From a virus (Duplodnaviria > Heunggongvirae > Uroviricota > Caudoviricetes): a stretch of DNA of 9,928 nt. Under the pieces are notes generated by a model that saw only the letters and a list, made by a program, of their open reading frames with translations, searched no databases and was not told where the DNA came from. Position numbers and translations under genes: made by a program. Positions 2,280 through 9,928 of the stretch are shown one piece after another. The number at the start of each line of letters is the position of its first letter. Within the stretch, counting starts at the first letter, position 1. The stretch lies in IMG/VR virus record IMGVR_UViG_2531839207_000017; one strand, 5' to 3'.

Positions 2280-2668
2280 GCCGGATAGGCTCCGTGTGGT
2301 AACTGAAAATGCGGTCCGTCTTTCAGGGTCTTCCAGTCGCCGCCCCATTCCACCGGAATATTCAGCTCCCGGCTGGCCTGTCTGAATGCTGCTGCGATTT
2401 TTTCGTACAGCGGCCATTCCCATGACACCTGGCTGCCGATATAAGCCACAACATCCACGGCATGTCCCGTAAGGTGGCGGCTGTTCATGGTCTGGCTCTT
2501 ACCCGTGGCCACAAGTTGCTTCTGGCGGTAACGGCTGCGCAACCCTTCGGTGATACCAAAATCCACTTCCGAAATTTCCAGTGCCCGTCGGGTCACTTTC
2601 ACCAGATCAGGATTTACGCCCTGCAAATTCTTTTCGCTCCGGCTGCTGAATTTAAATGTGTTGCTCAT
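2276..2668 (-). CDS. Endolysin, peptidase M15 family (zinc D-Ala-D-Ala carboxypeptidase / L-Ala-D-Glu endopeptidase type)
   Basis: 130-aa ORF with the M15 metal-binding signature SRHLTGHAVDV ... HFQLPH (His-Asp ... His). Strong RBS (GGGGGAAGGAGAAGGA) upstream of the ATG at 2666..2668. Sits in the position of the P2 K lysozyme but belongs to a different enzyme family. Confidence 0.85.
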   Translation of the reverse strand: MSNTFKFSSRSEKNLQGVNPDLVKVTRRALEISEVDFGITEGLRSRYRQKQLVATGKSQTMNSRHLTGHAVDVVAYIGSQVSWEWPLYEKIAAAFRQASRELNIPVEWGGDWKTLKDGPHFQLPHGAYPA

Positions 2669-2762
2669 TCGTCCTTCTCCTTCCCCCTGCGATTAAAGGC
2701 CGCAATAACCTTGTCGCGTGCTTTCTCTGCCCCCATAAAACCGATTGATGCGCCGATAAACG

Positions 2763-2987
2763 TCACGGCATCTTCAGGAAACCGAAGAAGCGCAACGACC
2801 CGGCCACGGCCATGGCAAGAACGCCGCACGCCAGCGATCCCGTTACGGTCTGAACCAGTGTTCGTCCGTCATAAAGACTCATCAGCGCGGAAATGCTGAC
2901 AGCCGCGCCTACTGCATACACCGTTGGCAGGTGGTCAAAGAGCCACGCAATAACCTGCTCTGTGATCCCTGTTTGAATGGTGCTCAC
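2763..2987 (-). CDS. Putative holin (two predicted transmembrane segments), in the gpY position
   Basis: The track ORF 2763..3206 overlaps gene X in an alternate frame. The plausible start is GTG at 2985..2987, just after the X stop and preceded by GGGGGAG, giving a 74-aa protein with two hydrophobic stretches (VIAWLFDHLPTVYAVGAAVSISALM and LVQTVTGSLACGVLAMAVAGSL). Assignment is by position and hydropathy only. Confidence 0.5.
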   Translation of the reverse strand: MSTIQTGITEQVIAWLFDHLPTVYAVGAAVSISALMSLYDGRTLVQTVTGSLACGVLAMAVAGSLRFFGFLKMP

Positions 2988-2989
2988 TG

Positions 2990-3785: not shown

Positions 3786-4586
3786 TTAACCGCGCTTCGC
3801 CTTCTGCGTCGCGGTGGTTTTTCGTGTTGCAGGCTTCCGCGTTGTCTTTTTACTTTTGCTGCTTTCGTCCTGCGTCTGCTGTGCGCTGGCGTCTTCTGGT
3901 GCGGCTGCGGAATCGGCTTTTTTCAGGGCGCGGGAAAGGGTTGCAATCTCGCGTTTCACACCTGCGTTCGGGTTCAGGTGCATTGCTTCGCGCAGCAGCT
4001 TCAGTGACAGGGCCATGCTGTCCGCATCACTCAGACCACGACGGGCAAAGGCGCACGCCTTGCATAATTTGGCGCGCACTTCGTCCGGCATGTCCTGGTC
4101 GCTGACAATCTCCCGGAGGGTGTCCAGTGGTTCGATAAAGGCTGACAAATCCGCGTCGGCATCCGTCCCGGCCTGCGTCAGTACCGGGTTGCAGATTTCT
4201 TCGGTCAGCACTGTGGCAGCAGTACGGCCAAAGTTATCCGGCATGATGAGGTTGTGACGGACCACATACGCACCAATACGCAGCGCAAGCGGAAGATCGC
4301 CGCAGTCAATCGCCCACACCATCAGCGTGGCAATCACTTCGTCCTGTTGCCCGCCGTCAGCCTCCAGCGTTCCCTCAATCCAGCCGGAAAAGTCCGGCAA
4401 CAACTCTTTTTTGATGGCGGCTTTCGCGCTTCTGGCCTGTACGCCCTTAAGCCGGGCCTGTGCCAGACGCAGACGATACAGCACCTCTTCATGCGCGGTA
4501 CGCGCGGCGTGGTCCACGCCTTCAGTCGACCGGCCTGCGCGCTGTGCCATCACGTTCTGCCAGTGTTGCTGTGCAGGAGTAATCAT
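3786..4586 (-). CDS. M: Terminase small (endonuclease) subunit M (P2 gpM-like)
   Basis: 266-aa ORF starting MITPAQQHWQNV, with an internal DMPDEVRAKL motif identical to the P2 gpM family as recalled. GGAGAG RBS upstream of the ATG at 4584..4586. Basic C-terminal tail. Confidence 0.85.
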   Translation of the reverse strand: MITPAQQHWQNVMAQRAGRSTEGVDHAARTAHEEVLYRLRLAQARLKGVQARSAKAAIKKELLPDFSGWIEGTLEADGGQQDEVIATLMVWAIDCGDLPLALRIGAYVVRHNLIMPDNFGRTAATVLTEEICNPVLTQAGTDADADLSAFIEPLDTLREIVSDQDMPDEVRAKLCKACAFARRGLSDADSMALSLKLLREAMHLNPNAGVKREIATLSRALKKADSAAAPEDASAQQTQDESSKSKKTTRKPATRKTTATQKAKRG

Positions 4587-4631: not shown

Positions 4632-5683
4632 TTAGCTGTCGGCGAACTTCAGGCCAGTGACCATCGCGCACTTGCCATAGTCTTCAACGACATAAGCATC
4701 GTTGATGGACTGGTAGGTGGCGATGCGGTTGTATTCCGGCTCGTCTTTCATCAGGCGACGCATTGTTCCTTTCTGCCAGTAAATCGACAGGTTGTTGAAC
4801 GAGGTGATCAGCATCGTTGAATCCGGGAAGAACGGCGCAAGGAATACATCCAGCCCGCCAATGGCGCGCGATGACAGGATGAGCTGTCCGGCAAGTAATT
4901 CCGCATTGGGATTCTGGCCGCTGATGCTGTTCAGCACGGGCAGACGCAGCGAGTTAAACAGGTTGCGCCCCATAATCACCACGAGGTCGTCAGCTTCCTT
5001 GTGCCATTCATCCAGCAGGGATGAGCGCGCGTCCTGTACCAGTGCATCAGCGTTCGCATACTTACCCGCGTGCGCCACGGTGTTGTCCATGTTGCGGGAG
5101 GTCAGCGTTACATCATTCATAACGCGTTCACTGGCATCGGTTCTGATGTGCTCCAGCCAGCCCACGTTAACGTCCTGAAGCAGCTTGTTGGTGCTGAAGT
5201 TGGACTCATCTGCGTGAGACGTGCCATTGAAACCGATCATGATGCGGTCAAGCGCCACCTGCCGGGCAATCTGTGTGCTGACGCGGGACTGAAAATCAGG
5301 GTGTGCCGCCCAGGCATCAAGCTGCGGATACGAAATAAACGTGTCGTAGTTCACCTGTTCGCACTGGTATTTGCGGTTTTTCAGATCAACCACGTTATTC
5401 GGGTTACGGCGTTTTGTGCCGTCATAACTGGTATTCGTGCGCGCAATCGGCCCGGTGGTATCCAGGAGGATTTTTTCGCCTTTCTGGTCGGTCACACCGA
5501 ATACGTTAATTTTTTTGTAAATTCAGTGCTCTCCTTTACTGCGTTTTCAAAACGCTGCTGCACCGAGGGTTCTACGGTAAATCGCGATACCAGTGCAGAA
5601 ACCGGGATATTGTTAAGCGACGCCTGCTGCGCCATATAGCAACCCAGTTTGTTGCGGGTAATATCTGACATCACCAGATTCAT
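4632..5683 (-). CDS. N: Major capsid protein N (P2 gpN-like), reading frame interrupted at an A7 homopolymer (possible pseudogene, assembly error or recoding site)
   Basis: Two adjacent - strand ORFs (5492..5683, 63 aa; 4632..5495, 287 aa) together align to the P2 major capsid family (FTVEPSV near the N-terminus, DQKGEKI just after the break, YVVEDYG near the C-terminus). The frame changes at the A7 run on the coding strand (T7 at 5510..5516 on +). One extra A, or a -1 slip, restores TKK-INVFGVTDQKGEKI. ATG at 5681..5683 with AGGAG upstream. Confidence 0.8.
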
Positions 5684-5706
5684 AAAAAATTTGCTCCTTT
5701 GTCTTA

Positions 5707-6543
5707 TCAGAAGTCAGCCAGTTGGTCGGAGGCTGCGCCCGTTGCGGTGAACCGGTTCTGCGGATCGCCGTCCTGCGTGCGCAGTTCTTCCTTCAGTGCT
5801 GTCAGCTCTGTGGTCAGTGAAATGATTTTCTGACGGTCCTGCTTATGGCGGGCTTCCAGTGCATTAAAACGGTCGATAATGTCGGCCTGTGACGTTGCGA
5901 CGCCTTCCACCGCTTCCTGAATGCGGGAAAAACTGGTGTCATCCGCTTTGCGGCCACGGCTAATAATTCCCATTACGCGGTTAAACCACTGGGTGCCTTC
6001 TTCCTGGCGTTGTTCTGCCATTTCGATGATTTCAGACTCGATGGCTTCGGAGATAAGCGGTGCTTCACCCTGGGCACTGTTAAACGTCATTACCGCCTGA
6101 CGTTGCTGTGCCGTGAATTTCAGGCGCTCAGTGCCCAGGCTTGCCGGGGTGTCGGTCATCGCCAGCCCGACCAGATAGGCGCGCCCGTTGACGGAGAACT
6201 GCGGGTGCAGTTCGATACTGGAATAGATTTTCTTGCCGTCAGCGACAAGCTGCTTCATGCGCTCGGTCGGTTCGATTTCTGCATACAGCGCAGTACGCCC
6301 GGCCAGCGGACCTTCCGTAATGTCTTCCGTACTCAGTGCGGTGACATCGCCCATTGCGGAAAATTCGCTTGACGGGCATGGCGAGAGATAGTGCTCAACG
6401 TTCACGCGGGCAGCGTAAACATCCGGGTTGAAGTTCTCGGCGGCTTCACGCAGATGCACCGGACTGATTTCACGGCCATCAACAGTTGATCCGGAGACAG
6501 CCACGCGAAACTTTTTGCGGGATGTCTTTTTTTCATTAGCCAT
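5707..6543 (-). CDS. O: Capsid scaffolding protein O (P2 gpO-like)
   Basis: Start taken at ATG 6541..6543 (MANEKKTSRKKFRVAVSGSTVDGREIS...), with GAGGGG 8 nt upstream. The track's upstream ATG at 6576 has no RBS. N-terminal region resembles P2 gpO as recalled. Confidence 0.85.
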   Translation of the reverse strand: MANEKKTSRKKFRVAVSGSTVDGREISPVHLREAAENFNPDVYAARVNVEHYLSPCPSSEFSAMGDVTALSTEDITEGPLAGRTALYAEIEPTERMKQLVADGKKIYSSIELHPQFSVNGRAYLVGLAMTDTPASLGTERLKFTAQQRQAVMTFNSAQGEAPLISEAIESEIIEMAEQRQEEGTQWFNRVMGIISRGRKADDTSFSRIQEAVEGVATSQADIIDRFNALEARHKQDRQKIISLTTELTALKEELRTQDGDPQNRFTATGAASDQLADF

Positions 6544-6697
6544 AGTTTTTGCCCCTCTGACTGGTTCTTCAGTCATGATGGCAAAGCGTAACAGGCTGAT
6601 ACAAAGGGCTTTTGTTGTAAGAAAACAGTCAGAACAGGGGGTTAAGGAGAACGGTTTCGCGCGCGGGTAATCTTCCTGTAATTACTCAGGGGGAGCA
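6544..6697. promoter_or_regulatory. Divergent control region between O (- strand) and P (+ strand); expected site of the two late promoters
   Basis: A 154-bp intergenic region between divergently oriented operons. In P2 the late promoters PP and PO sit here and are activated by Ogr. I could not locate a canonical TGT-N12-ACA site. There is an imperfect palindrome ACAAAGGGCTTTTGT at 6601..6615 and TA-rich -10-like hexamers near 6670..6685. Confidence 0.45.
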
Positions 6698-8449
6698 ATG
6701 ATTCAGGACGCTTTTGTGCGCCAGCGTGCGCGGCAACTTTACTGGCAGGGTTATCCGCCCGCAGAAATATCACGTCTGATGGGAATAAACCCGAACACGA
6801 TTTATGCGTGGAAAAAACGCGACCAGTGGGATGAAACGCCACCCGTGCAGCGTGTCACGCAGTCCATCGATGCGCGCCTCATCCAGCTTACTGAAAAACA
6901 GAATAAAACAGGCGGTGACTTTAAGGAAATAGACCTGCTGACCCGGCAGCTTAAAAAACTGCATGATGGCCAGCCGGATGCGACGGCCACAGGAAAGAAA
7001 GGCCGGGCGAAAAAACTCAAAAATCATTTCACGCCGGAACAGATTGCCGCACTGCGGGAAAAAATCATCAGCAGGCTGGAGTGGCATCAGCGGGGCTGGT
7101 TTGACTCCCTGACCCTTTGCAGGGAAGCCGGGATACGTAACAGGATGATCCTGAAATCCCGACAGATTGGGGCGACCTGGTATTTTGCACAGGAAGCACT
7201 GCTGATGGCGCTGCGTGACGATGTGGCGCAACCTTACCAGCGTAACCAGATTTTTTTGTCTGCGTCGCGTCGTCAGGCGTTCCAGTTTAAAAGCATTATT
7301 CAGAAGGCCGCGGCTGAAGTTGATGTGGAGCTGAAAGGGGGCGATAAAATCATCCTCTCCAACGGCGCAGAGCTGCATTTTCTCGGCACTTCTGCTGCGT
7401 CGGCACAGTCCTATACGGGCAATTTTTATTTTGATGAATTTTTCTGGGTCAGTCGCTTTGCTGAACTGCGCAAGGTGGCTGGCGCTATGGCAACCCTCAG
7501 CGGACTGCGGCGCACCTACTTCTCCACGCCATCCACCGAAACGCACGAGGCATACGCCTACTGGAACGGCGACCGCTGGAACGAGAAAAAGGCCACGCAT
7601 AAACGCCAGCGTTTTTCTGTGGACTGGAAAACGCTGTATAACGGGCTTATCTGCCCTGACCGGACGTGGCGGCAAATTGTCACGCTGGAAGATGTGGTTA
7701 AACACGGCTGGAAACACACCGATATCGACGAAATTCGTGATGAAAACACCGAAGACGAGTTCCGCAATCTCTATATGTGTGAGTTTGTCCGCGAAGGGGA
7801 ATCGGCATTTAACCTGAATATCCTGATTGGCTGCGGTGTTGATGGATACGACGACTGGAAAGACTGGAAACCTTTTGCTCCCCGCCCGATGGGGAATCGT
7901 CCGGTATGGATTGGGTATGACGCAAACGGCAGCAGTGGAAACGGCGACAGCGGCGCTGTGTCCGTGGTGGTTCCTCCGGCTGTTCCTGGTGGCCGTTTTC
8001 GAACGGTGGAGACGCGACGCGTTCAGGGGCTGGAGTTTGAAGAACAGGCCAGAGTCATTGAAGAGTTCACGTGTCGCTACAACGTGGAACACATCGGCAT
8101 TGATGCGACGGGCGGGCACGGGGATGCCGTTTATCAGATAGTGAAACGGTTTTTCCCTGCTGCCATCCCGTACACCTTCACGCTGTCATCAAAACGGTCG
8201 CTGGTACTGAAAATGCTGCAAATAATGCGTGCCGGGCGGTGGGAATACGATCGCGCCGAACGCGAGCTGGTCGCGGCCTTTAACGCCGTGCGTAAGGTGA
8301 AAACACCGGGCGGCTTTATCACTTACGAAACGGACCGCGCGAGGGGGATCAGCCATGGCGACCTTGCGTGGGCAACCATGCTTGCTGTCATTAACGAACC
8401 GATTGGCGGCGAAGGAGAAAACGAGCGTTTCACGGTTATGGAGTTCTGA
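6698..8449 (+). CDS. P: Terminase large (ATPase) subunit P (P2 gpP-like)
   Basis: 583-aa ORF in the size class of P2 gpP, with a helix-turn-helix-like N-terminus. ATG at 6698 preceded by GGGGGAG. The stop overlaps the Q start (ATGA at 8449). Divergent from O as in P2. Confidence 0.93.
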   Translation: MIQDAFVRQRARQLYWQGYPPAEISRLMGINPNTIYAWKKRDQWDETPPVQRVTQSIDARLIQLTEKQNKTGGDFKEIDLLTRQLKKLHDGQPDATATGKKGRAKKLKNHFTPEQIAALREKIISRLEWHQRGWFDSLTLCREAGIRNRMILKSRQIGATWYFAQEALLMALRDDVAQPYQRNQIFLSASRRQAFQFKSIIQKAAAEVDVELKGGDKIILSNGAELHFLGTSAASAQSYTGNFYFDEFFWVSRFAELRKVAGAMATLSGLRRTYFSTPSTETHEAYAYWNGDRWNEKKATHKRQRFSVDWKTLYNGLICPDRTWRQIVTLEDVVKHGWKHTDIDEIRDENTEDEFRNLYMCEFVREGESAFNLNILIGCGVDGYDDWKDWKPFAPRPMGNRPVWIGYDANGSSGNGDSGAVSVVVPPAVPGGRFRTVETRRVQGLEFEEQARVIEEFTCRYNVEHIGIDATGGHGDAVYQIVKRFFPAAIPYTFTLSSKRSLVLKMLQIMRAGRWEYDRAERELVAAFNAVRKVKTPGGFITYETDRARGISHGDLAWATMLAVINEPIGGEGENERFTVMEF

Positions 8450-9495
8450 TGAGCAGAAAAAATAAAAAAGTGCGCATGAGTTCACGCATTGATCTCGCTG
8501 ATGCGCTCAGGAAAGAATCGTCGCTCAGTGCATTCACATTTGATGGTCCTTATCGCCTGACCGGGCATGACCTGCTGGATAATATGTACTGTGCTGATAA
8601 CGGGCGGTGGTACGAAACCCCGGTGGACTGGTACGGTCTGGCAAGAGCTGCCCGGCAAACGTCCTGGCATCAGTCTGCGCTTTACTTTAAGCGCAATGTA
8701 TTGCTCGGCTGCTATATTCCGCACCCGCTGCTTTCCCGGCAGGATTTCTCGGCGCTGGCGCTGGACTGGTTTGTGTTCGGTAACGCATTCCTTGAGCTTC
8801 GAAGCAATATGCTCGGCGAACCGCTTAAATTACGGCACGCCCTGGCGAAATACATGCGACGCGGAAGCGATCTTGAATCATGGTGGTATGTGCAGGATGG
8901 CAAGGACGCGTTCCAGTTTCGCCCTGGCAAAGTGTGCCACCTGATGAATCCGGATATTAACCAGGAAATCTACGGCATGCCGGAATATCTTGGCGCATTA
9001 CTCTCGGCCAGCCTTTCTCATTCGGCGGACATGTTCAGAAAACTGTACTACGACAACGGATCCCACGCCGGGTGCATCATCTACATCGGTGCAGCGCAGG
9101 TAAACCGCGAAAGCATGGACTCCCTGAAAGAAACGCTACAGGGCGCACGTGGTGGTGGTGCGTTTAAAAACGTGCTCATTCATGCGCCCAACGGGGGCAA
9201 AGAAGGTGTGCAAATTTTGCCGTTCCAGCAGATCACCGCAAAGGATGAGTTCATGAATGTTAAGGCGGCATCCCGTGATGATGTGCTGGCTGCGCACCGC
9301 GTTCCGCCGCAACTGATGGGGGCGATGCCGGGCGAAAAAAGTGCGTTTGGTGATGTGGAGAAGGCCGCGCGGGTTTACGCAATTAACGAGCTGATGCCCG
9401 TCATGGAGGCCATGAAGCACATCAATGACTGGCTTGGCGAAGAGGTGATCCGCTTTAACCCTTACGCACTGCTAGATACCCAGCCCACATCCTGA
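8449..9495 (+). CDS. Q: Portal (capsid vertex) protein Q (P2 gpQ-like)
   Basis: 348-aa ORF immediately downstream of and translationally coupled to P, matching P2 P-Q organisation and gpQ size class. GGAG 5 nt upstream of the ATG. Confidence 0.93.
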   Translation: MSRKNKKVRMSSRIDLADALRKESSLSAFTFDGPYRLTGHDLLDNMYCADNGRWYETPVDWYGLARAARQTSWHQSALYFKRNVLLGCYIPHPLLSRQDFSALALDWFVFGNAFLELRSNMLGEPLKLRHALAKYMRRGSDLESWWYVQDGKDAFQFRPGKVCHLMNPDINQEIYGMPEYLGALLSASLSHSADMFRKLYYDNGSHAGCIIYIGAAQVNRESMDSLKETLQGARGGGAFKNVLIHAPNGGKEGVQILPFQQITAKDEFMNVKAASRDDVLAAHRVPPQLMGAMPGEKSAFGDVEKAARVYAINELMPVMEAMKHINDWLGEEVIRFNPYALLDTQPTS

Positions 9496-9521
9496 CGCGC
9501 TTCGCTTGTCTGCTGCTTCGC

Positions 9522-9546
9522 CGGGGCATAAAAAATTTATGCCCCG
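9522..9546 (+). terminator. Stem-loop 27 nt downstream of the Q stop (CGGGGCATAAA aaa TTTATGCCCCG); possible P-Q operon terminator or RNA-stability element
   Basis: Perfect 11-bp inverted repeat with a 3-nt centre, read directly. There is no U-tract on either side, so it is not a canonical intrinsic terminator. Confidence 0.35.
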
Positions 9547-9803
9547 ACTCTCCAGCTCCTGTATCAATCAGATAATTTCACGACGCTTTCCTGCTTATTG
9601 CCATCATCGACAGCCAGACTCTTACGCAATCCCACCGCGTTGACTGTATGTTCTCGCCGTCTCGGTGCGATTTTGACGGCCTTACCTTTCACTCCATCAA
9701 ATCAAAAGCCCTCACGTCTTTTTCACGCTCAGCGTGAGAAATACAGCCATTCTGTTGTATCTCTGCGACATCGTTCAGGGAATGCTATTTACCCCCTGAA
9801 ACG

Positions 9804-9830
9804 CGGGCTGTTCCCCCGTCACCTGCGCGC
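9804..9830. other. Candidate cos (cohesive end) region of the P2-like genome
   Basis: The - strand reads GGTGACGGGGGAACAGCCC, which loosely resembles the P2/186 cohesive-end sequence as I recall it (GGCGAGGCGGGGAAAGCAC), sharing a GGGGAA core. It lies about 310-335 bp beyond the Q stop, similar to the cos-to-Q distance I remember for P2. Match is imperfect and from memory. Confidence 0.25.
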
Positions 9831-9928
9831 AGAAAAAACGCGTTTTTTTGTGCACGCACGGATCCTTGACGGATCCAGCCGCCATGCGGGCCGGAAGGGT
9901 AAAAAGTCGTTCAAAAAAATTGTGCAAA

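Follow-up and report, generated by a model that had tools for sequence, protein, structure and literature searches.

The 433 nt that follow the portal gene Q at the right end of our window, by which we mean the whole stretch of DNA analyzed (9,928 bp), raise the question of what a prophage keeps in a segment with no evident gene. The original prediction had described this segment as a non-coding post-portal region with a hairpin, a candidate cohesive end site (cos) on the - strand, and the edge of an accessory gene hotspot. Our analysis supports that central description, with refinements. We consider it highly probable (roughly 85%) that positions 9496..9928 hold the untranslated 3' end of the P-Q (terminase and portal) operon and then the cos of a P88-like, P2-family prophage. 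The feature is ordinary, since this very common type of prophage is expected to have a cos and a transcript end here, and understanding of P2-family packaging is unchanged by it. What the analysis does provide is the location of the packaging signal (~152 bp) of a prophage type found in ~20% of complete E. coli genomes and the exact left edge of the cos-proximal defense hotspot. Both are of use for automated hotspot mining, for the design of cosmids and transducing particles, and for matching satellites to their helpers.

A map of open reading frames (ORFs) and database matches identify the window as the head and lysis module of a P2-family prophage (Table 1). The genes for baseplate V, tail S/R, lysis, X, L, gpM, capsid N, and scaffold O all lie on the - strand, and those for the large terminase gpP and the portal gpQ lie on the + strand. 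The homologues of gpQ, gpP, and gpM are 47%, 44%, and 36% identical, respectively, to their P2 counterparts, and the gpQ homologue is labeled as portal in the annotations of P88 and of E. coli prophages. Positions 9300..9928 are 95 to 97% identical to Escherichia phage P88 and its relatives (Xuanwuvirus and neighboring Peduoviridae genera). The prophage is P88-like (Xuanwuvirus, P2-family) and not P2 itself. The 433 nt 3' of Q were found at an identity of at least 90% in ~1100 of 5426 complete E. coli genomes. The window's own copy of the prophage may be non-functional, given a 1-nt deletion in each of its holin and capsid genes.

Table 1. Features of the window discussed in the text, with predicted elements of the cos region.
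Feature	Coordinates	Strand	Description
Small terminase, gpM homologue	3786..4586	-	PF05944 Phage_term_smal
Large terminase, gpP homologue	6698..8449	+	Terminase_6N and Terminase_6C domains
Portal gene, gpQ homologue	8449..9495	+	348-aa ORF; PF04860 Phage_portal; last gene of the P-Q operon
Hairpin	9522..9546	+	11-bp perfect stem, 27 nt past the Q stop codon
Spacer, non-coding	9547..9793		Between hairpin and cos, ~250 nt
Second, weaker hairpin in spacer	9716-9729 / 9731-9744		z -2.6
Cos region (probable)	9794..9928, full block to ~9946		Delimited by satellite sharing, conservation drop, and 24 downstream clusters
Predicted cosN, 19-nt cohesive end	9805..9823	-	+ strand GGGCTGTTCCCCCGTCACC; - strand 5'-GGTGACGGGGGAACAGCCC
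GC-rich palindromic segment, 19 nt	9824..9842		TGCGCGCAG + AAAAAACGCG; adjoins cosN
T7 run and proximal GTGCA	9843..9854	+	TTGTGCA at 9848..9854
Direct repeat ACGGATCC x2	9858..9876	+	11-nt spacing; two GATC sites; clade-specific
A7 tract (9913..9919) and first TTGTGCA repeat (9920..9926)	9911..9928	+	First of three, 10-bp-phased

The first part of the segment is best described by its hairpin. As predicted, 9496..9928 contain no ORF of about 60 codons or more (the largest are 50, 45, and 42 aa), and the stem-loop past Q has the perfect 11-bp stem that had been claimed for it, with arms at 9522-9532 and 9536-9546 that are 100% complementary and enclose a 3-nt loop. Folded as + strand RNA, the hairpin reaches -22.2 kcal/mol (z = -5.95), and none of 200 shuffled sequences folded equally well. 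It has the stable GC-rich stem-loop of an intrinsic (rho-independent) terminator. A U-tract is absent, its 3' neighbor being GACTCTCC on the + strand and GCGAAGCA on the - strand, and a scan for intrinsic terminators returned no terminator-like site, this hairpin included. Because the U-tract is missing, we do not class the hairpin as a canonical intrinsic terminator and prefer to call it terminator-like or a stabilizer of the 3' end. In P2 and 186, the terminators tQ and tW are annotated at the equivalent position; like the hairpin in the window, each is a strong GC-containing hairpin soon after the portal stop codon, but tQ and tW continue into a T-run, whereas the window continues into GACTCTCC. 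Among relatives, a strong GC-rich hairpin lies 10 to 50 nt past the portal stop in every lineage, with a sequence specific to that lineage (examples of the arms are CCGCCGCA..TGCGGCGG, GGCCAGCG..CGCTGGCC, and GGCAGGTTAT..ATGACCTGCC). Retention of a hairpin whose sequence differs from lineage to lineage points to a structural role where the P-Q transcript ends, like that annotated for tQ and tW, and from its position we suggest that the hairpin marks or stabilizes that end.

The spacer that separates the hairpin from the conserved elements downstream is only weakly conserved in relatives with 67 to 78% portal identity, and the distance from Q to cos varies among relatives from 183 to 311 nt. 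Across 40 unique close relatives, variants in the small ORFs of the spacer fall evenly on the codon positions. With a ratio of synonymous to non-synonymous changes of ~1:3 as well, the candidates of 42, 45, 50, and 29 aa were rejected as genes; two of them carry an annotation in P88. A search of 9400..9928 against Rfam gave no match at E <= 1.

We then asked where, past this spacer, a cohesive end could lie. The original prediction had noted a loose likeness to the P2/186 cohesive end on the - strand at about 9809..9828. Such a likeness is present, since an ungapped comparison with P2 cosL (GGCGAGGCGGGGAAAGCAC) matches 13 of 19 positions at 9805..9823 on the - strand, but taken alone it does not rise above chance: two further sites in the window score 13/19, as did 199 of 1000 dinucleotide shuffles of 9496..9928. 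Local alignment to the cos regions of P2, 186, and P4, which had been proposed as a check, likewise does not exceed shuffled sequences. Support for a cos thus comes from where the site lies, how it is conserved, and how it is laid out. The best argument for the exact placement is spacing, as 19 nt separate cosN from the T-run in the window and also in P2, 186, and P4. For this reason, we place the core at 9805..9823, 4 to 5 nt to the left of the stretch first proposed, with its right boundary at 9823|9824. By analogy with P2, the nicks would fall at 9804|9805 on the + strand and at 9823|9824 on the - strand, give or take 2 to 3 nt.

No phage record in our collection begins at a block of the P88 type or the Klebsiella ST16 type, and a literature search for the core sequence gave no match. 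The sole linear record, P88_4B11, has its ends at what corresponds to 9900|9901, outside 9805-9823, and shows no redundancy; we treat this break as an arbitrary assembly break. Contig ends in IMG/VR were considered as physical ends and rejected, as their positions are inconsistent.

The position and layout of the site were compared with those of experimentally defined cos regions. P2, 186, and the satellite P4 have 19-nt 5' cohesive ends and a 55-bp conserved core, according to Ziermann and Calendar (1990) as cited in PMC5694545 and PMC9122126. In P2 and 186, gene Q (W in 186) is followed by a terminator (tQ or tW) and then, ~170 nt downstream of the gene, by the 19-nt cohesive end; the order is the same here, with a Q-to-cos distance of ~310 nt. 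The accessory genes past cos are old and tin in P2; in 186 they are tum and orf97. The site in the window is thus located where P2-family cos sites are, with the portal gene Q ending on one side, the accessory and replication (gpA) region on the other, and the genes for gpP and gpM nearby. The orientation is shared by P2, 186, P4, and the window, and the predicted core of the window, like theirs, is G/C-rich, is 19 nt long, and starts with GG(C/T)GA on the Q-side strand. In all of them the core is followed by a 19-nt GC-rich palindromic segment, a T-run, one (A/G)TGCA motif, and three more (A/G)TGCA motifs at +97 to +120.

To compare the spacing of these motifs, we turned the circular junctions of P2, 186, and P4 to match the orientation of the window and listed every TGCA, with its offset counted from the first base past the cohesive end to the start of the motif. 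The offsets are +25, +97, +107, and +119 in P2; +25, +97, +107, and +116 / +120 in 186; +25, +97, +107, and +120 in P4; and +27, +99, +108, and +118 in the window as extended with P88. By our own rough arithmetic, four TGCA motifs within +/-2 nt of set offsets would arise by chance with a probability of ~1e-7 per anchor, or ~1e-4 over the region. The 19 nt past the cohesive end of P2 form a GC hairpin (CGCCCGCTTCACGGGGCGG) that runs into TTTT, and the 19 nt past position 9823 in the window read TGCGCGCAGAAAAAACGCG and run into T7. The hairpin of P2, P4, and 186 is unrelated in sequence to the window's segment at 9824..9842 but fills the same slot. Together, the offsets, the 19-nt spacing, and the 48 distant relatives described below give the window the conserved flanking core and architecture of a P2-family cos. 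Against this shared layout, 6 of the 19 core positions differ from P2, and the repeat unit is GTGCA here and ATGCA in P2, 186, and P4. Because the terminase subunits are only 36 to 44% identical to those of P2, packaging specificity is probably distinct from that of P2.

Conservation was assessed first in phages retrieved by similarity to the portal 3' end, with no cos motif in the query. Three such phages, Enterobacter phage phiT5282H and Klebsiella phages ST16-OXA48phi5.4 and 3LV2017, have post-portal regions that mostly cannot be aligned with the window, save for one block. This block reads GGGCTGTTCCCCCGTCACCTGCGC in both the window and phiT5282H, where it is identical; it is nearly identical in ST16-OXA48phi5.4 (GGGCTTGCCCCCCGTCACCTGCGC) and takes an intermediate form in 3LV2017 (GCGCTTGCTCCCCCGCCTCGCCTGCGC). 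In phiT5282H and ST16-OXA48phi5.4, the flanks of the block (~9805..9832) are only ~72 to 75% identical or cannot be aligned. The block of 3LV2017 has 12 contiguous nt in common with the P2 cohesive end, and from its sequence this form appears to link the P88-type core to the P2-type core, which lends the 13/19 match some indirect support.

A wider set of loci was obtained with the pattern GGGCTNNNCCCCCGTCACCTGCGC. A scan of IMG/VR returned 120 contigs, 113 of which have a portal gene upstream of the core (67 to 100% protein identity); the other 7 have too little upstream sequence for the portal check. The core usually lies 183 to 311 nt past the portal stop, the exceptions being ~10 contigs with an insertion (883 to 935 nt) and one with a truncated portal match (596 nt). 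When one genome per species was scanned with this pattern, the result was 27 enterobacterial loci and 3 matches in GC-rich genomes. These 3, in Anaeromyxobacter, Janibacter, and Thioalkalivibrio, come without the remaining cos architecture and serve as chance controls. Across the 120 viral contigs and 27 enterobacterial loci, the core is 183 to 311 nt past a portal gene of 59 to 100% identity, a rule that excludes loci with insertions, loci that are too short, and the portal-less elements considered below.

Since a match to 21 bases of the core was a condition for selecting most of these loci, those bases are invariant by construction, and the informative positions are those that the pattern did not require. 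Two stretches outside the pattern stand out among 48 unique relatives with 67 to 78% portal identity. The T-run and GTGCA at 9843..9854 are 80 to 99% conserved, and the equivalent of 9911..9946, which in relatives reads TCAAAAAAATTGTGCAAATTTGTGCACTATTGTGCA, is 70 to 99% conserved; past the equivalent of 9946, conservation in these distant relatives falls to background.

These two stretches, namely, the conserved T-run with its GTGCA and the phased GTGCA repeats, were absent from the list of features in the original prediction, which had emphasized a cluster of tightly packed palindromes. The palindromes are all present. CTGCGCGCAG occupies 9823..9832 and AAAAAACGCGTTTTTT, a perfect palindrome, occupies 9833..9848; both are enclosed by an imperfect inverted repeat (9824-9838 / 9844-9858). 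The GGATCC-ttgac-GGATCC element at 9860..9876 is also there but is better described as the direct repeat listed in Table 1. For the most part, though, the palindromes are not what distant relatives conserve. We weighed the idea that CTGCGCGCAG, A6CGCGT6, and the two GGATCC sites have a function of their own as binding sites for proteins, such as a host factor or, at GATC, Dam/SeqA. A perfect 16-nt palindrome is expected only ~0.007-fold in 433 nt by our own arithmetic, and the features are kept across the P88 clade, both of which would fit such a role. In the 48 relatives with 67 to 78% portal identity, on the other hand, neither the A6CGCG half (AAAAAACGCG) of the palindromic segment nor the second GGATCC is conserved; only TGCGCGC(A), the T-run, and one partly conserved (C)GATCC persist. 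Moreover, this slot is filled by another GC hairpin in P2, 186, and P4, which suggests a structural or spacing role and not a sequence-specific one. On balance, we find separate binding sites improbable. The A6CGCGT6 and GGATCC palindromes are clade-specific, and what seems to be kept is a short self-complementary segment of fixed length followed by a T-run, not any particular palindrome.

Within the cos reading, the T7 run and proximal GTGCA are a candidate contact for the small terminase, equivalent to TTTTAATGCA of P2. TTGTGCA occurs twice in the 9.9-kb window, both times in the right arm of cos; since 2.3 copies are expected, it is the placement of the motif alone that is informative. The window holds only the first of the three distal repeats, as repeats 2 and 3 would fall at ~9929-9946, past the end of the contig. 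The triple-repeat pattern was found in 96 of the 177 loci fetched, with at most one match per locus. The GTGCA repeats were also considered as a centromere (parC) for ParMR, a candidate that we rejected, as the repeats persist in phages and satellites without ParMR.

The extent of cos was bounded with the help of elements that lack a portal gene. Four loci have ~1.3 to 6.9 kb of sequence upstream of the core yet no portal gene there (L139, Candidatus Erwinia dacicola; L146, Apirhabdus; L157, a metagenome-assembled genome labeled Bacillota; L160, Izhakiella). Two more, in Kluyvera (L137) and Enterobacter hormaechei (L151), have the same flanks and too little upstream sequence for the portal check. 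No homologue of gpP, gpM, gpO, or gpL was found in the portal-less loci. They do encode homologues of P4 proteins (int, 57% identical; epsilon, 40%; cI/Ash, 52 to 58%; orf88; and delta), together with a Toprim primase and a second tyrosine recombinase. They also encode a 432-aa homologue of the P2-family capsid protein that is 39% identical to the intact gpN of E. coli KFu014 and has an N-terminal extension of ~125 aa. When these satellites are compared with the phages by BLAST, only -11..+141 around 9805 aligns, and nothing else does within 600 nt on either side. This shared interval bounds cos to ~152 bp, or ~9794..9946, most of which falls on the cargo side of cosN. P2 and P4 have only cos in common (PMC9122126), and the portal-less elements mirror that relationship, the block being the only segment that they share with the phages.

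These satellites are ~11 to 12 kb in size, occur in Erwinia, Izhakiella, Apirhabdus, Kluyvera, and Enterobacter, and lack sid, psu, portal, and terminase genes. We suggest tentatively, at somewhat under even odds, that the P88-type cos, with its core GGTGACGGGGGAACAGCCC and its GTGCA repeats, represents a packaging-specificity class apart from that of P2, 186, and P4 and is common to P4-like satellites. If this is true, capsid-encoding satellites of the P4 type would be tied to P88-like helpers via the P88-type cos.

The satellites also bear on whether the block might be a transcriptional insulator or regulatory region, with cos located elsewhere or packaging by a headful mechanism. The P-Q operon on the + strand and the cargo, ParMR, and gpA genes on the - strand do converge at the block, the region contains hairpins and T-runs, and the third ATGCA repeat of P2 overlaps the -35 region of the old promoter. 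However, the P4-like elements, which have other genes on both sides and no P-Q operon, keep exactly the block alone; the layout matches the experimentally defined cos of P2, 186, and P4 offset for offset; and cargo modules carry their own terminator hairpins beside the third repeat. We regard an insulator as very unlikely.

Under the preferred reading, that of a cos, the order of elements from the Q side would be the 19-nt core at 9805..9823, the 19-nt GC-rich palindromic segment, the T-run with the proximal GTGCA, a spacer of ~60 nt, the A7 tract, and three GTGCA repeats one helical turn apart. In phage lambda, the cos (cosQ-cosN-cosB) contains R sites bound by the small terminase Nu1, and the cohesive ends are 12 nt long. 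The likeness to lambda is one of principle, in that a nicking site is flanked on one side by phased repeats for the small terminase and by bend-prone A/T tracts; the lambda cos has no sequence relationship to that of the window, where we identified no cosQ-like element. The P2 family reportedly packages from monomeric circles. By analogy with P2 and lambda, we propose that gpM, the small terminase, attaches to the GTGCA repeats that lie beyond cosN on the cargo side and that the large terminase gpP would then make staggered nicks at ~9804|9805 (+) and 9823|9824 (-). The products would be 19-nt 5' cohesive ends, with GGTGACGGGGGAACAGCCC on the Q-side end. The accessory and defense hotspot would begin directly past the third repeat, and the contig breaks before that point.

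The original prediction had placed the end of the window where any cargo would begin. The window does stop near the edge of the hotspot, but it stops inside cos, ~19 nt before relatives diverge. It is the entire contig AJVT01000059.1 of GCA_000263955.1, and for this reason its own cargo cannot be read from it. An independent Logan assembly of SRR495236 stops at the same base and has 5 differences from the window, all in 9144..9477. Collapse of co-resident related elements, with the assembly graph branching where they diverge, would produce this pattern of a shared stop and 5 differences. The best match to the window among E. coli genomes is 97.9% identical, and 10 contigs with an identical portal protein are at most 97.7% identical to it. 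We conclude that the end of the window is an assembly artifact inside cos, where the contig stops at a repeat boundary, and not a biological boundary; the "missing payload" of the window is an artifact of the same kind.

What lies beyond can be seen in relatives, where the predicted edge of the P2 accessory hotspot is borne out: past cos, relatives with an identical portal protein have hypervariable, defense-like cargo. When the 400 nt past the third repeat are compared among 58 close relatives, they sort into 24 clusters unrelated to one another, and many clusters start with a terminator hairpin of their own. This sharp end of homology at the third repeat, with its 24 downstream variants, and the speculation of Rousset et al. 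that cos ends promote recombination at the hotspot (PMC9122126) could also suggest a site-specific or homology-driven recombination site for cargo exchange, similar to the boundary of an attC-like cassette, but this is highly improbable as an alternative to cos. In the phages, no recombinase is consistently adjacent, the integrase being ~9 kb away on the other side of the early region. Any essential cis site would be bordered just as sharply, a recombination site would leave the match to the cos layout of P2 and P4 unaccounted for, and a role as a boundary is compatible with being cos.

The variable interval is the cos-proximal hotspot of P2 (the old/tin locus) described by Rousset et al. in 2022 (PMC9122126). 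As in P2, the content between cos and gpA is highly variable and often defense-like; this holds for the relatives, the window itself stopping ~19 nt short. Behind an identical portal protein, the 10 contigs have at least 7 cargo arrangements, including Ead_Ea22, an S8 peptidase with an AAA ATPase, AAA_15/AAA_21 with a D12 methyltransferase, DUF4760, and several unknown proteins; ParMR is present in some of these contigs and missing from others. P88 carries small hypothetical proteins and ParMR, phiT5282H carries an S8 peptidase with AAA, and ST16-OXA48phi5.4 carries a UvrD-helicase pair. In E. coli KFu014, a close relative with an intact gpN, the cargo position is occupied by an IS4-family element.

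The P88-type cos, the predicted packaging site, was also found in P4-like satellite-type elements of Erwinia, Izhakiella, Apirhabdus, Kluyvera, and Enterobacter, and the Kluyvera (L137) and Enterobacter hormaechei (L151) loci probably belong to the same group as the four loci listed in the table. These elements encode homologues of P4 int, epsilon, cI, orf88, and delta together with a Toprim primase (phrog_1139), and a second tyrosine recombinase adjoins cos. They contain neither sid, psu, nor alpha, and neither a portal nor a terminase gene. They do encode their own P2-family capsid homologue of 432 aa, which has an N-terminal extension of ~125 aa and is 39% identical to gpN of a close relative. 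Our literature search found no published description of capsid-encoding P4-like elements of this type.

Positions of features in the window and in related loci
Feature	Locus	Position	Strand	Detail
Second inverted repeat	Window	9716..9744	+ (RNA fold)	GTCTTTTTCACGCT / AGCGTGAGAAATAC, z = -2.6
Major capsid gene (gpN homologue)	Window	4632..5683	-	1-nt deletion near 5511 vs intact relatives
Holin gene (Phage_holin_3_1 in relatives)	Window	2665..2988	-	1-nt deletion near 2778
IS4-family ISVsa5 transposase gene	L005 (E. coli KFu014)	10511..11719		Start ~78 nt past equivalent of window end
Cos of satellite-type element	L139 (Candidatus Erwinia dacicola)	1290
Cos of satellite-type element	L160 (Izhakiella)	5860
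Cos of satellite-type element	L146 (Apirhabdus)	6947
Cos of satellite-type element	L157 (MAG labelled Bacillota)	4214

Within the window, a second inverted repeat lies ~70 nt upstream of cosN, the predicted cohesive-end core, and is conserved within the P88 clade. P2/186 and distant relatives carry other small GC palindromes at roughly the same distance from cosN. The only linear-record end in the P88-like clade is that of P88_4B11 (NC_049391.1; loci L002 and L004), and its position differs from the predicted cos. This record starts and ends between gggca and aaaattcg, corresponding to window positions 9900 and 9901, ~77 nt to the right of predicted cosN, and it has no terminal redundancy. Its end probably reflects an arbitrary break in the assembly.

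The window is identical to the entire WGS contig AJVT01000059.1 (GCA_000263955.1; 9,928 bp). Positions 5344..9928 are also represented in a Logan assembly of SRR495236, which stops at the same base and has 5 mismatches to the window (9144, 9285, 9333, 9472, and 9477). The shared end and these differences suggest that at least two related co-resident elements were collapsed during assembly, with contigs breaking where the elements diverge. In addition, the major capsid gene is frameshifted by a 1-nt deletion (ACAAAAAGAATT in intact relatives, ACAAAAAAATT in the window) that introduces a stop at codon 64, and the Logan contig carries this deletion too. Either the prophage is defective or the deletion is a sequencing error of the homopolymer type. 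The holin-gene deletion sits in an A-run, and the window has no intact holin ORF. Taken with the capsid frameshift, this deletion casts doubt on either the sequence quality or the viability of the prophage.

The closest complete-genome match to the region 9496..9928 is E. coli KFu014, at 99.3% identity. Given the location of the ISVsa5 transposase gene in this genome, the hotspot position beside cos, where P2-type phages carry accessory and defence genes, is held by an IS element. Some P88-like phages (IMG/VR loci L027 and L057, PhiR44_2, vB_EcoM-569R5, and vB_EcoM-705R2) carry an extra minus-strand gene of 167-174 aa (phrog_5091) between the portal gene Q and cos. One type of insertion lies before the hairpin that follows Q and replaces the last Q codons; the other lies after the hairpin, in place of 9552..9664. 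The Q side of cos is therefore a second, minor slot for accessory genes in P88-like phages, and an accessory-gene slot on this side has been reported for phiCTX and phiRSY1 (PMC5694545).
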